DNA of 64,000 nucleotides from a virus. Below the pieces are notes generated by a model that was not told the origin of the DNA, ran no database searches, and saw only the letters and a list, made by a program, of their open reading frames with translations. Every line of letters starts with the position of its first letter. Positions within the stretch are counted from its first letter, which is position 1. A program made the position numbers and the translations under genes. The stretch lies in the IMG/VR virus record IMGVR_UViG_3300015371_000015, positions 1 through 64,000 of that record. The stretch is one strand, 5' to 3'. Of this stretch, positions 34,140 through 57,125 are shown one piece after another.

Positions 34140-34166
34140 CGCTCGCGCTGGAAACTGCTACTAAGA

Positions 34167-34281
34167 TGAGACCCAGAACCCACCGAAGTTCTGGCCTAGC
34201 CTTACTGCCGTATTAAATCGTCCCGAACGATCCAGAACACAAGTTCCTAAGTGCGCTTTAAGAGTGGGCGCACAGGTCTCA
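34167..34281 (+). ncRNA. putative small structured RNA (cassette without an ORF)
   Basis: TGAGACC/GGTCTCA closing stem; internal hairpins CCAGAAC/GTTCTGG, ATCGT/ACGAT, GAAC/GTTC, GTGCGCTT/GGGCGCAC; begins at a promoter repeat. Confidence 0.6.
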
Positions 34282-34350
34282 ACTGTTCATATTTTTCTCT
34301 CGCGCTGATAACAACTACTGTAATGAGACCATCCCAGTTTAGGAGCCACC

Positions 34351-34437
34351 ATGATCCGTCGAACCGTGTTCGTCATCGTCTTCTACGAAGGCGTGCCGAC
34401 GCTCGTCATCGCCACGATCTACATCCCCCTCTACTGA
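34351..34437 (+). CDS. 28-aa hydrophobic microprotein
   Basis: promoter repeat, AGGAG RBS, MIRRTVFVIVFYEGVPTLVIATIYIPLY, then hairpin. Confidence 0.65.
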   Translation: MIRRTVFVIVFYEGVPTLVIATIYIPLY

Positions 34438-34538
34438 CCCACCACCTTAGCCCATTTCCCCTGGGCTTAGGTTTTGGCGGCCTCGCGAGTAAAACAATCA
34501 CTGTAATGAGATACCAACCCATCCCTCAAGGAGAAATC

Positions 34539-34631
34539 ATGCACATCGTCTTCAAGATCCTGCTCGTCCTCGCCGCCCTGCTCGGACTGGCCGGACTCGT
34601 GAAGTTCATCGTGAACCGCCTCGAGAGCTGA
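34539..34631 (+). CDS. 30-aa single-TM microprotein
   Basis: promoter repeat, AAGGAG RBS, MHIVFKILLVLAALLGLAGLVKFIVNRLES. Confidence 0.7.
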   Translation: MHIVFKILLVLAALLGLAGLVKFIVNRLES

Positions 34632-34735
34632 ACCCCTCGGCCCTAGCCCATTGCACCCTCCAAGCCACATCGCAATGGGTTAGGGTTTAGCTTTTTCCCA
34701 CCATCCCACAAGCACCACCTAACAAGGAGACATAC

Positions 34736-35179
34736 ATGAACGACCAGCCCATCCCGACCCCCGCCCTGACCGAGCAGCTTCGGAAGGTCAAGAACCACCG
34801 CTACTTCAAGGCCGCGATCATCGGCGTCGCCGCAGCCGGCGGTGCGTTCCTCGCTGTCCGTGCCTCGCTCAAGCAGATCACCGATGACGTCCACCACATG
34901 GCCGGTCACGTGCACAACCTCGACCACAACGTCTACAACGAGGCCAGCCACGTCATCGACGAGATCCACGCTCAGCAGCGCCTGCGCAACACCAGCCGTC
35001 GTACGATCGACATGGCGATGCACGCCAACGCCGACTTCGACTACTACCCCGGTCTCGGGGTGCGCTACGCCTCGATCGAGCAGGCGGACAAGGCCGAGCG
35101 CAAGTGGCTGGAGCGTCAGCAGGAGATCGAGTCGGGCAACGTCACGCCCATCTCCAAGAACAAGAAGAAGGCGAGCTGA
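34736..35179 (+). CDS. hypothetical membrane-anchored protein
   Basis: AAGGAG RBS, TM segment. Confidence 0.75.
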   Translation: MNDQPIPTPALTEQLRKVKNHRYFKAAIIGVAAAGGAFLAVRASLKQITDDVHHMAGHVHNLDHNVYNEASHVIDEIHAQQRLRNTSRRTIDMAMHANADFDYYPGLGVRYASIEQADKAERKWLERQQEIESGNVTPISKNKKKAS

Positions 35180-35181
35180 TC

Positions 35182-35424
35182 ATGCAGAACTACGCAGTGA
35201 CGACCTATGTCACCGCCCCGAGTGCTGAGCTGGCGGCGCAGGCCATCGCTCAGGCGCAGACCACCCAGCAAGTCGTCGTGCCAGTCACCATCGGGGCTCA
35301 GTCCGTGGAGCCCACGTGGATGGAGATCGACACCACAGTCGTGGACAGGATCGTGCGCAAGGTCATCGCCGGCGTCGCCATCTACTACATCAGCAAGTCG
35401 CTGAAGAAGTGGGCGAAGTCATGA
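35182..35424 (+). CDS. hypothetical protein
   Basis: tightly packed; ATGA overlap with next gene. Confidence 0.6.
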   Translation: MQNYAVTTYVTAPSAELAAQAIAQAQTTQQVVVPVTIGAQSVEPTWMEIDTTVVDRIVRKVIAGVAIYYISKSLKKWAKS

Positions 35425-54610: not shown

Positions 54611-54615
54611 CATTA

Positions 54616-54746
54616 CCCGTTCGGGTCGAATGCAGTCGGTTAACTTGAGTTATTGGTTCGAGTCCAATATGCCTTCTTTGAGGGCATTGGCGCAATTGGC
54701 AGCGCAAAGTACATAAAACCCGGCAGCACCCTTACATCCGAACGGG
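54616..54746 (+). ncRNA. Y RNA / YrlA-like unit 1 (permuted tRNA-like domain)
   Basis: CCCGTTCGG/CCGAACGGG outer stem with GGGTCGAA..TACATCC core; T arm ATTGG-TTCGAGT-CCAAT, loop-closed acceptor-like stem, D arm GCGC-AATTGGCA-GCGC; adjacent to Ro60. Confidence 0.85.
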
Positions 54747-54775
54747 CTTCATCTATCCCACGCAGAGGAGAACGC

Positions 54776-56548
54776 ATGACCACGACTGACCCGTACGCGG
54801 GTTTCGGTACGCGACAGACCCACCAGCAGCACCGTGCTCCCGACCGACCGGAGCAGGTCAAGAACAACGCCGGCGGCTACGTCTTCCAGATCGATCCCCT
54901 GACCCAGCTCAAGCGGTTCCTGACCATCGGGACCGTCGGGGGATCCTACTACGTCGGCGAGAAGGAACTGACCCGTGAGAACGGTGAGATGATCCTGAGC
55001 TTCACGCGCAACCCCACCACGCACGCCCAGCTCGTCGACACCATCGTCGAGATCAGTCTCGCGGGCCGTGCACCCAAGCAGAACCCCACGCTGTTCGCCT
55101 TGGCCATCGCGTGCCAGCACGGCGACACCGCTTCCAAGCAGTACGCGCGCAAGCAGCTCACGAAGGTCGTCCGCACCGGTACCCACCTGTTCCTCTTCGT
55201 GGGTTACGTCCGGCAGTTCGGTGGCTGGAATCGTGGCATGCGGCGTGCAATCGGTGCGTGGTACTCCGAGAAGGACCCGGACAAGCTGGCCTACCAGCTG
55301 ATCAAGTACCGGCGTAGGAACGACCTCACCCACCGTGATGTCTTGCGGATGGCTCACCCGAAGATCAAGATGGACGAGGTCAACGAGCGGATCGCCATGC
55401 TCGATGCCGCGTTCCGGGCGAACGAGGACGACCCGAACACCAAGGAGCTCATGGCGGATGCTCTTCGGGCTCGCAACGAGCGGCTGAAGCTCCGGTCGAA
55501 CATCGACTGGACCATCAAGTACCAGAACCGGGACTACTCGGCGCTGGAGGGTGGAACCTCGAAGATCATCGAGGCGTTCGAGGCCTGCTGGCGTGAGCCG
55601 GAGAACATCCCGGCAATCATCAGCGACAACCCGGGGCTCCCCTGGGAGGCCTTGCCGGACGAGGCTCTGACCAAGGTGGAGACGTGGGACCGGCTGCTGG
55701 ACAACGGCATGCCCATCCACGCTCTGCTGCGTCAGCTCCCCCGTCTGACCAACCTCGGGATGCTGCCTCCGATGGGGGCCGGGCGTACGGACGATGTCAT
55801 CCACCAGCTCCTGAACCGTGAGGCGCTGGAGAGGGCTCGGATGCACCCGATCAACGTCCTGGTGGCGCTCAAGACCTATGCCTCCGGGCAGGGCGAGCGC
55901 AACCACTGGTCGCCGAACACCAAGATCATCGACGCGCTGGACGAGATGTTCTACCGCTCGTTCGGTTTCATCGAGCCCACAGGCAAGCGCATCTTGCAGG
56001 CCTGTGACATCTCGTACTCGATGATGGGAGCGAGGACCTTCGGTGGGAAGAAGCCTTTCCCGCTCTCACCGGCTGAGATCACCGGTGCGATGGCGTTGGC
56101 GACGGCTCACATCGAGCCCAACCACCACATCGTCGGGTTCTCCTCGCTCTCGGGGCAGAACAACCGGGATCCGCGGGACTCGAAGCTGATCGACCTCAAC
56201 ATCAGCAAGCGGCAGCGCATGGACGACGTCATCAACACGATGTACAACCGGACCTTCGGTGGTACGGACGTCGCGCTGCCCATGGTCGCCGCCTTGGAGC
56301 ACGGGTGGAAGATCGACACGTTCGTGATCTACACGGACAACGAGACCTGGCACGGGGATATTCATCCTCACCAGGCGCTCGAGCGTTACCGCCGGCAGAC
56401 CGGAATCGACGCACGCCTCGTGGTGTGTGCGATGTCTGCCTCCCACTTCAGTGTGGCCGACCCGAAGGACCCCCGTCAGCTCGACATCAGCGGCTTCGAC
56501 AGCGCGATGCCTCAGCTGATCTCGGAGTTCTCGGCCGGCAACATCTGA
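54776..56548 (+). CDS. rsr: Ro60 / TROVE-domain RNA-binding protein (Rsr-like) with C-terminal vWA domain
   Basis: N.AGG.VF, L.RFL.IG..GG.YY, VRTGTHLF.F, LAYQ..KY..R...THRD.LR.AHP, MP..ALLR.L, D.S.SM, GGTD.ALP, F..YTDNETW, GFD; GAGGAG RBS at 54776. Confidence 0.95.
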   Translation: MTTTDPYAGFGTRQTHQQHRAPDRPEQVKNNAGGYVFQIDPLTQLKRFLTIGTVGGSYYVGEKELTRENGEMILSFTRNPTTHAQLVDTIVEISLAGRAPKQNPTLFALAIACQHGDTASKQYARKQLTKVVRTGTHLFLFVGYVRQFGGWNRGMRRAIGAWYSEKDPDKLAYQLIKYRRRNDLTHRDVLRMAHPKIKMDEVNERIAMLDAAFRANEDDPNTKELMADALRARNERLKLRSNIDWTIKYQNRDYSALEGGTSKIIEAFEACWREPENIPAIISDNPGLPWEALPDEALTKVETWDRLLDNGMPIHALLRQLPRLTNLGMLPPMGAGRTDDVIHQLLNREALERARMHPINVLVALKTYASGQGERNHWSPNTKIIDALDEMFYRSFGFIEPTGKRILQACDISYSMMGARTFGGKKPFPLSPAEITGAMALATAHIEPNHHIVGFSSLSGQNNRDPRDSKLIDLNISKRQRMDDVINTMYNRTFGGTDVALPMVAALEHGWKIDTFVIYTDNETWHGDIHPHQALERYRRQTGIDARLVVCAMSASHFSVADPKDPRQLDISGFDSAMPQLISEFSAGNI

Positions 56549-56560
56549 GTACGTAGAGAA

Positions 56561-56700
56561 GCAGGGCCGGGTCGAAGATGATCGGTTAACTGGATAACAT
56601 TGGTTCAATCCCAATCCAGGTCTGGGCCCACAAGCCTGCCTGGCTCGCCACTTCGGTGGCAGATGAAAACATCCGGTCGTCACCCCACATCCGGCCCTGC
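56561..56700 (+). ncRNA. Y RNA-like unit 2
   Basis: GCAGGGCCGG/CCGGCCCTGC outer stem, same core; T arm ATTGG-TTCAATC-CCAAT; GCCAC-TTCG-GTGGC hairpin in the D-arm position. Confidence 0.8.
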
Positions 56701-56742
56701 CTCTCGCGTAGCAAACAACCTCCATAATAGGAGGTACCTATC

Positions 56743-57003
56743 ATGCCAAATCCCGACCGCCCGTTCAAGATCAGTGACCATGCCCGAACCAAGATGAGTT
56801 TGCGCGCGATTACGAAGGACGAAGTGTTCGACACCATCCTCGCCTACGAGAAGACAGACAAGAAGAGTAACCAGAAGCGTTATTTCAAAGGACGTCTTTG
56901 CGTAGTCGTGGGAGAAGGTCGCACCTTCGACACCATCATCACCGTGCTCCTCAACGAGTTCGACACATGGACTGATCACCACGCAAGAGATCGCAAGAAG
57001 TAG
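56743..57003 (+). CDS. DUF4258-like protein (putative RelE/BECR-fold ribonuclease)
   Basis: S.HA..KM..R.I...EV...I, L.VVV, IITV pattern; own promoter repeat and terminator. Confidence 0.6.
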   Translation: MPNPDRPFKISDHARTKMSLRAITKDEVFDTILAYEKTDKKSNQKRYFKGRLCVVVGEGRTFDTIITVLLNEFDTWTDHHARDRKK

Positions 57004-57072
57004 TACCCAAGCCTCACCCCGTTTCCACAAGGGGTTAGGTTTCGCTGCGGTCGCGAGGAAAACAACGCTTGT

Positions 57073-57125
57073 AATGAGAGGTAGGGTAGTAATACCCGGT
57101 AACCCGCCAGTTACGACCTCTTATT
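57073..57125 (+). ncRNA. putative small three-way-junction RNA
   Basis: AATGAGAGGT/ACCTCTTATT stem; GGGTA-GTAA-TACCC and GTAAC-ccgcca-GTTAC hairpins. Confidence 0.55.

Follow-up and report, generated by a model that had tools for sequence, protein, structure and literature searches.

A repeated promoter-like element in an uncultured actinophage precedes structured RNA elements whose predicted closing helices pair with its ATGAGA end

The 64,000-nucleotide stretch analysed here (the window) covers the first 64 kb of IMG/VR virus record IMGVR_UViG_3300015371_000015, a 79,660 bp genome (CheckV completeness 100%, GC 57.8%) of a siphovirus-type actinophage that encodes a terminase, portal and tape-measure protein and has all its credible genes on the plus strand. 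Its primase-polymerase is 55% identical to Gordonia and Rhodococcus phage versions and 68–70% identical to those of three uncultured relatives. The genome carries 19 copies (15 in the window) of a 29-bp repeat, TCGCG-N18-ATGAGA or, with the AAACAA block of its spacer, TCGCG-N5-AAACAA-N8-ATGAGA, a putative promoter that lies on the plus strand without exception and whose spacer is invariably 18. Positions relative to this repeat are counted from the A of ATGAGA as +1. Past the ATGAGA of 14 copies (13 in the window), a ribosome-binding site (RBS) and start codon follow within 25–57 nt. Downstream of five window copies, with ATGAGA at 34166, 36363, 37454, 53407 and 57074, the next start codon lies 185, 189, 99, 130 and 837 nt away, respectively (gene starts were taken from a codon-usage gene map). 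These five copies and the predicted RNA elements behind them, E1 to E5, are as follows.

34143–34171, plus strand: putative promoter copy of E1 (TCGCG 34143–34147, ATGAGA 34166–34171)
34164–34296, plus strand: E1, predicted multi-hairpin RNA of ~130 nt; closing helix 34164–34173 / 34275–34284, then a U-rich run
36340–36368, plus strand: putative promoter copy of E2, beginning directly after the stop of the NUMOD-like gene 35926–36339
36361–36503, plus strand: E2, predicted 21-bp helix 36361–36381 / 36483–36503 around four AUUGC-loop hairpins
37431–37459, plus strand: putative promoter copy of E3
37454–37515, plus strand: E3, predicted three-way junction; closing helix P1 37456–37465 / 37500–37509, hairpin 1 37468–37481 (loop UAGU), hairpin 2 37482–37499, U-run
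53384–53412, plus strand: putative promoter copy of E4, hexamer TATAAT at -4 to +2
53406–53503, plus strand: E4, predicted 10-bp closing helix AAUGAGACGU/ACGUCUCAUU with a branched interior holding two GAAGCCAA; z-score -3.4
57051–57079, plus strand: putative promoter copy of E5, with a terminator hairpin upstream (57011–57030, T-rich tail to 57039)
57073–57135, plus strand: E5, predicted three-way junction; P1 57073–57082 / 57116–57125, AAUGAGAGGU/ACCUCUUAUU, U-rich tail; z-score -3.4

The original prediction held that these stretches contain neither an RBS nor an ORF (open reading frame), and that in each a stem pairs with the motif's own ATGAGA and is followed by a U-rich stretch. Folds, shuffles and z-scores agree with this. 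In every fold (A)ATGAGA forms part of the closing helix, at z-scores of -2.7, -5.9, -4.3, -3.4 and -3.4 for E1 to E5 (-3.4 or lower is attained by 1.7% of the genome's 64-nt windows), a U-rich run follows every 3' arm, and no RBS-preceded ORF was found within any of the five. In E1 (fold 34164–34281), UGAGACC pairs with GGUCUCA, with two further pairs beyond an A-A mismatch. The closing helix of E2 consists of 21 contiguous pairs from -2, and TCATTGCGA occurs four times. P1 of E3 has ten pairs, the four on the motif's GAGA being G-U or A-U pairs with the U-run. The repeated GAAGCCAA of E4, reported from the outset, is located at 53419 and 53445. When the downstream sequence was shuffled, a helix matching the observed one arose in 248 (E1), 0 (E2), 29 (E3), 11 (E4) and 76 (E5) of 2000 shuffles, and Fisher's method across the five results gives ~2e-6.

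A scan with the Rfam 15 covariance models, a check suggested along with the original prediction, gave no match at E <= 5 in 33000–38000. In 53000–58000 it found nothing on E4 or E5, only a Pistol ribozyme and sub-threshold YrlA and tRNA matches elsewhere. ARAGORN detected 0 tRNA genes in the window, and E1–E5 have no cloverleaf. Searches of cultured phages by megablast and blastn with E1–E5 and one E3 relative returned matches only to a terminator and the Pistol core. Single-protein searches yielded no close relatives, and relatives were collected via an alignment of DUF6353 homologues (17 loci; DUF6353 contigs of ~60% (58–63%) identity are outside this comparison set). Several copies of the same repeat are present in 12 of the 17 loci, at 44–57% amino acid identity. 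The phage itself is present letter for letter in four further rhizosphere metagenomes, on contigs differing nowhere from the window. These contigs, over 34100–54099, are identical across E1–E4 and thus provide no covariation.

Comparative evidence supports E3, the leader of the DUF6353 gene 37553–38380. Its homologues in 12 relatives lie after a repeat copy and before a small membrane ORF and DUF6353. Family members were defined by P1, hairpin 1 (GCUAG-UAGU-CUAGC type), hairpin 2 and a U-run, directly after a repeat copy. A covariance model built on this family, R1, returned two overlapping sets of members, 17 from one search and 6 from a second, and its matches include distant phages in which the upstream box is AGGGC or TCGGG instead of TCGCG, some with the hexamer GTGAGA. 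On 98 repeat-bearing IMG/VR loci, R1 gave no additional E3 members. Over 16 distinct sequences, the paired cells amount to 86.9%, versus 73.9% when shuffled and 37–51% in slid controls. Both sides have changed in 14 of 21 pairs, and values as high as those observed arise in 0 of 500 shuffles. For the closing helix P1 alone, both-side changes are seen in 7 of 10 pairs. A leave-out model containing no window sequences, R2, recovers E3 at full length with 68.2 bits (E 2.4e-17), and on this comparative evidence we count E3 firmly among the members of a covarying RNA family.

In members of the E3 family, 4–7 U (3 in relative L037 and in E5) follow P1 within 0–3 nt. In the short-arm members, the 5' strand of P1 is G3–G8 and covaries. 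A terminator hairpin stands just upstream of about half of the family's repeat copies. The 16-mer of hairpin 1 was found in 24 unrelated bacterial or archaeal genomes, against ~280 expected by a rough chance estimate, and offers no clue to the host. Directly 5' of the DUF6353 start, a TATATTTnAACTCGCTCAnTAAGGGAGC block (37516–37552) is conserved among relatives and may be a translation-initiation or operator element. The small membrane ORF that the relatives have between the E3-like RNA and this block is missing from the window. We considered the sequence after E3 as a relic promoter, and ruled this out, as it is the same conserved block found directly upstream of DUF6353 in relatives. The layout of the relatives is the same, with no promoter copy between the RNA and the gene, so transcription must read through.

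The 57073 element had been described as a three-way junction similar to that at 37456, with GUAGU in hairpin 1 of both, and this description holds. The loop of hairpin 2 in E5, CCGCCA, is common to eight E3-family members, and E5 is probably a divergent member of the family. It heads an ORF-free stretch, 57004–57910, with Y-RNA-like modules. A gene for Ro60 (54776–56548, TROVE and vWA domains) lies upstream, E5 being ~500 nt downstream of it, and a DUF4258 gene at 56743–57003 adjoins the ORF-free stretch. Sub-threshold matches to YrlA were seen on the plus strand at 54630–54732, 57542–57600 and 57693–57747 (35, 27 and 24.5 bits, with a gathering score of 69), and the YrlA model RF02553 gave no match on E5 itself (57072–57135).

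E1 is a free-standing cassette, since the next repeat copy follows at 34300. Its one homologue (L044:5686–5790) likewise lies between two copies, and its 3' hairpin shows two compensatory pairs; an IMG/VR pattern search for the conserved hairpin of E1 returned nothing. E2, E3 and E4 would instead be 5' leaders or attenuators, because a protein start follows 48, 43 and 33 nt downstream, respectively, with no repeat copy between. The gene behind E2 (36552–36968) encodes a 138-aa protein for which no relatives were found. In the analogues of E2, at L045:1399 and L045:1539, two or three identical hairpins are enclosed by a long helix. Directly 5' of the E2 array, 35926–36339 encodes a protein with an I-HmuI NUMOD-like DNA-binding domain, and a 35%-identical NUMOD-like homologue (L045:966–1340) likewise stands directly before a hairpin array, in that case a different one; the hairpin repeats and the protein may belong together. 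E4 is the leader of an 85-aa gene (53537–53794) that runs into a Pistol ribozyme. In its analogues (L036:11914 and L043:7296), closing helices of 16–18 bp cover the entire ATGAGA, with one compensatory pair. The Pistol self-cleaving ribozyme (53796–53858, plus strand; RF02679, 60.8 bits, gathering score 34.5) begins one base past the stop of the 85-aa gene and heads ~770 nt of ORF-free DNA up to Ro60. Matches to the Pistol core also occur in Gordonia phage GMA2, Curtobacterium phages and Microbacterium phage Count.

The claim of five small-RNA cassettes can thus be kept in part. The covariation of E3, the homologue of E1 and the analogues of E2 and E4 support the view that the elements are RNA-level features rather than protein. 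Five free RNAs do not follow: judged from the layout, E1 alone among the five is clearly free-standing, E2–E4 standing 33–48 nt before protein starts and E5 heading its Y-RNA-like stretch. Beyond the window, at genome position 71401, there is a sixth element of like design. There (genome 71378–71440, L033:7378–7440), a small hairpin, AGACCC/GGGUCU, begins in GAGA, with UCUCUUUGUCUUUCC and the RBS of a 140-aa gene coming next, in that order. A variant repeat copy, with ATAGGA replacing ATGAGA, was noted in the window at ~61931–61959.

The association between RNA-type cassettes and pairing to ATGAGA extends to other phages. Copies were classed as RNA-type when no RBS lies within 55 nt and as mRNA-type when an RBS is present. 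Among 99 copies on 14 contigs, the median score of the ATGAGA-pairing helix is 8.0 in the RNA-type and 4.5 in the mRNA-type group (Mann-Whitney p 1.7e-11, or 3.6e-9 once the window's genome is left out). A second, independent sample, 189 copies at 52 IMG/VR loci, has medians of 8.5 versus 4.5 (p 2.4e-18). A pattern scan of IMG/VR found at least 105 stretches, with two or more copies in 52 IMG/VR loci among the matches listed; a control pattern, with N6 rather than N5 before AACAA, gave 20 single matches, which we judged to be chance. In several of the IMG/VR relatives (L182:4519–4592, L189, L204, L201, L199 and L212), tRNA-like genes lie behind the repeat. ARAGORN reports them as 'tRNA-???' with 4-nt or 2-nt anticodons, and one as tRNA-Thr(AGT); those with abnormal loops are candidate tRNA mimics. 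Pairing of leader with trailer lengthens the acceptor stem of these genes, and a U-run follows.

The design is also present in cultured phages. In Arthrobacter phage Tatanka (genus Gordonvirus, cluster AU), CTCGCR-N14-TATAATGAGA occurs nine times in the stretch examined, and a 390-nt gap 5' of the DUF6353 gene (L085:4593–4983) holds three tandem units, each running from repeat copy to RNA. Their closing helices are GAAAGGUAAGG/CCUUGCCUUUC, AAUGAGAAGG/CCUUCUUAUU and AUGAGA/UCUCAU, with a U-run after the second and third. The cluster AU phage Gordon shares the repeat, and the corresponding gap in Tatanka and Gordon has 2–3 RNA cassettes. The gap region is conserved in 55 Arthrobacter phages, and the four-way-junction RNA encoded there has 26 consensus pairs, of which 11 are compensatory. 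Two of the three Tatanka gap RNAs have T-arm-like hairpins (GGUUCGAAUCC and GGUUGAAAUCC). Small hypothetical protein genes are annotated over the gap in Tenno, Brunswick, Ingrid, Inked and Tokki, and these annotations over the RNA region are probably erroneous. A 32-bp intergenic repeat of cluster AU Arthrobacter phages has been interpreted, in a preprint on phage Giantsbane, as a recombination 'boundary sequence' (bioRxiv 10.1101/2020.01.10.891226). That repeat is apparently homologous to ours (CTCGCR-N14-TATAATGAGA) and occupies the same genome position, around genes 5' of the DUF6353/membrane-protein gene, but the preprint describes neither a promoter role nor structured RNAs behind it (bioRxiv 10.1101/2020.01.10.891226).

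Where transcription would start can be bounded by comparison. The original prediction placed the start at or just before ATGAGA, and three lines of evidence back this: the positions of the tRNA-like genes, the covarying G3–G8 strand of P1 and displaced copies in the Arthrobacter phages. ARAGORN puts the first base of the tRNA-like genes at +5 in three phages and, in one case each, at +7, +8 and +11. Most of them would be truncated by a start at +9, which argues against it. In the Arthrobacter four-way junction, the promoter's GAGAAGG serves as the 5' strand of P1 in six copies, and the three copies that are displaced 35–100 nt downstream encode a P1 strand of their own, once covarying (GAGAUAG/CUAUCUC). 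Over 90 copies, conservation is contiguous from -23 to +6 and ends there; +1 is a purine in 90 of 90, and +7 to +13 have no purine preference. About half of the E3-family repeat copies come directly after a terminator hairpin, so read-through into them is limited. Taken together, these observations would place the start at about -2 to +3.

Sigma-70 promoters start transcription 7 nt after the -10 box. Our repeat is not sigma-70-like, so this rule is inapplicable: the base equivalent to A-11 is A in 23% (21/90) of copies, there is no conserved -35 element at a workable distance, and a scan of two regions for the sigma-70 consensus (-35 TTGACA, 16–18 bp spacer, -10 TATAAT) found 0 sites. The phage does encode a sigma factor of the extracytoplasmic function (ECF) type (50688–51272, plus strand; TIGR02937, 47.4 bits; Sigma70_r4_2). 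It was rejected as the reader of the motif because the three motif-sharing relatives have no homologue, and it probably serves other promoters, possibly late ones.

The elements fold, E3 and related RNAs are conserved and covary, many phages share the design, and comparison sets bounds on the 5' end. This suggests a reading that we consider likely, in which the repeat is a compact promoter, its last six bases open the transcript and the RNAs close on their own 5' end. ATGAGA would be the first transcribed bases, and every RNA would open with (A)AUGAGA. From most copies this leader would run to an RBS and a small gene. From six copies in the genome, five of them in the window, it would run into a folded non-coding module, the 3' strand of which (UCUCAU, CUCUUAUU or CUUCUC) would have evolved to pair with the obligatory 5' end. 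A transcript obliged to open with (A)AUGAGA needs UCUCAU-like 3' bases if its ends are to be paired, which would account for the observed pairing. The terminal helix with its immediate U-run would resemble a factor-independent terminator or a precursor stem, and may terminate or attenuate transcription. Two kinds of unit can be envisaged. One is a self-contained series of promoter, RNA and terminator, as in E1 and in the tRNA-like genes and hairpin arrays of relatives. The other is a read-through 5' leader, as in E2 (138-aa gene), E3 (DUF6353), E4 (85-aa gene and Pistol) and E5 (Y-RNA array beside Ro60), of which E2–E4 would act as attenuators or 5' stabilisers. For the E3/E5 family we would guess at attenuation or stabilisation in cis, with a factor bound by the conserved hairpin loops UAGU and CCGCCA.

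Several observations weigh against this reading. The GAGA of E3-type elements pairs solely with the pyrimidine- and U-rich tail, which is easy by chance. The E1 helix is weak by itself, given how many shuffles reach it, and E1 and E4 have only one or two relatives each. R2 finds E5 at full length as its second-best match in 95 kb, but marginally (19.6 bits, E 0.007) and with a different hairpin 1. Closing helices that span 40–120 nt of branched RNA are atypical for intrinsic terminators, and a simple terminator scan flags, of the elements, only hairpin 2 of E3. No RNA run containing this phage was listed. Nor was any polymerase or factor found that would read so compact a promoter. Besides the ECF sigma factor, we considered a phage single-subunit or two-barrel RNA polymerase and rejected it, having found no such domain or catalytic motif: a search for the T7-like polymerase domain (PF00940) in this genome and three relatives (G000–G003) gave none at E <= 10, with control genomes silent too, and no DxDGD or in-frame HDSF motif was found in this phage.

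The alternative that we take most seriously, although we think it unlikely, is that transcription starts downstream, near +9. Here T(-4)nnnAT(+2) would be a sigma-A -10 box and GAGA a discriminator, own-promoter transcripts would lack the 5' arm, and the helices would form only in read-through RNA, acting as insulators: terminators or RNase III sites at which that RNA is stopped or cut, whereas RNA from the element's own promoter gets past. In Tatanka, -4 to +2 reads TATAAT in eight of nine copies and TATAGT in the other, which as a sigma-A -10 box would give a start near +9, another point against the start we propose. GAGA is like the optimal GGGA discriminator, and IS10 provides a precedent for shielding from outside transcription. 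Read-through RNA must exist at E2 and E3, where there is no terminator between the upstream gene and the promoter, and complementarity resumes at -5 to -8, past a small loop, in two relatives. However, a start near +9 would truncate tRNA-like genes that begin at +5 to +8, and RNA from the element's own promoter would lose the covarying P1 of the short-arm E3-family members. The terminator hairpins ahead of about half of the promoters, the low frequency of A at the A-11 equivalent (23% of 90 copies) and the lack of a purine preference from +7 to +13 all speak against this alternative, as do E4-type helices in relatives that have no usable U-run after them.

We give still less credence to the possibility that the pairing is a matter of DNA, with inverted repeats serving as operator pairs, as cruciforms at the 3' end of the promoter or as recombination 'boundary sequences' between cassettes. 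This would suit the published interpretation of the cluster AU 32-bp repeat (bioRxiv 10.1101/2020.01.10.891226) and the position of the E2 repeats behind a gene with a NUMOD-like DNA-binding domain, which is syntenic in L045. Yet the interiors are multi-branched, with covarying hairpins that keep their pairing while their sequences differ, the arms lie 40–140 bp apart, G-U pairs are tolerated, U-runs occur on the plus strand only and tRNA-like genes share the layout. A coding origin, whether as microprotein cassettes in decay or as leaderless mini-ORFs read from the motif's ATG, with stems formed by chance, is hardly credible. Each element does have an ORF of 11–22 codons from that ATG, and that of E3 is open in frame into DUF6353, but its relatives stop after four codons (ATGAGAAGAAGCTAG) and the Pfam match of DUF6353 opens at the annotated start. 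The z-scores and covariation favour RNA. Leaderless peptides were accordingly rejected: no peptide is conserved and, in the mRNA-type cassettes, the frame of the motif's ATG has no consistent relation to the real ORF.

How do these elements compare with known systems? Bacterial Y RNAs (YrlA, RF02553), which associate with Ro60/Rsr, have their 5' and 3' ends paired in a terminal helix (Chen et al. 2014, PMC4201824). E1–E5 likewise have a terminal helix, and E5 is near Ro60 and heads a stretch with sub-threshold YrlA matches. Unlike Y RNAs, E1–E5 have no YrlA match and no tRNA-like domain, and R1 finds no E3-family member in the Ro60-bearing loci L010–L012. Three-way-junction leader RNAs such as the purine riboswitch, and terminator attenuators, also place P1 and two hairpins in a 5' leader, with the 3' strand of P1 abutting a U-run. 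The E3-type junction differs in being nearly without unpaired bases, hence without a ligand pocket, and has no alternative antiterminator fold and no Rfam match. The put RNAs of phage HK022, two stem-loops past a promoter and before terminator-rich DNA, are antiterminators that act in cis on RNA polymerase so that terminators downstream are suppressed; they are not known to have a closing helix or U-run. E5 would resemble them in preceding a hairpin-rich RNA array, but its sequence is unrelated. The promoters of T7-group single-subunit polymerases read ACTATA|GGGAGA and, like our repeat, are compact contiguous motifs to +6 with an AT-rich -4 to -1 and GAGA at +3 to +6. Relatives read CACTATA-TGAGA where the T7 group has CACTATA|GGGAGA, a likeness that is only a lead; the upstream half (TCGCG, AAACAA) has no T7 counterpart and no T7-like polymerase gene was found in the phage and three relatives. 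As for phage tRNA genes or decoys, the same putative promoter would drive tRNA-like genes in relatives, but E1–E5 form no cloverleaf.

Two further features of the window were noted. A 481-aa protein (13198–14643, plus strand) has a weakly 2'-5' RNA ligase/2H-phosphoesterase-like N-terminus and a DUF7211 domain, and may be relevant given the self-cleaving ribozyme and Ro60 in the same genome. At 48774–50107, metagenome contig depth jumps from ~3–5 to 100–170, with numerous loose ends, so the genes 48999–49808 and 49805–50212 are evidently common to other abundant organisms.

A broader interpretation, which we offer as possible but doubtful, is that a widespread actinophage lineage has a compact promoter that is not sigma-70-like and whose first transcribed hexamer becomes part of the terminal helix of its products, that it expresses swappable structured RNAs from this promoter beside its microproteins, with host RNA-binding factors or defence factors as the targets of these decoys or sponges, and that a further factor reads the promoter. 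The repertoire would then run from three- or four-way junctions and arrays of hairpins to Y-RNA-like modules and tRNA-like RNAs whose anticodon loops are abnormal.

To our knowledge, the non-coding RNAs of Actinobacteria-infecting phages are almost unknown. What is described here is new relative to Rfam and to the preprint on the cluster AU repeat: at least two covariation-supported RNA families outside Rfam and several recurring architectures, all on one putative promoter, present in 55 sequenced Arthrobacter phages and, several times per contig, on more than 50 contigs of uncultured phages. On our reading, the published 'recombination boundary' sequence is probably a promoter. The work raises the question of what reads a promoter without sigma-70 hallmarks, and the cultured Arthrobacter phages make the start site, the RNAs and their function directly testable.

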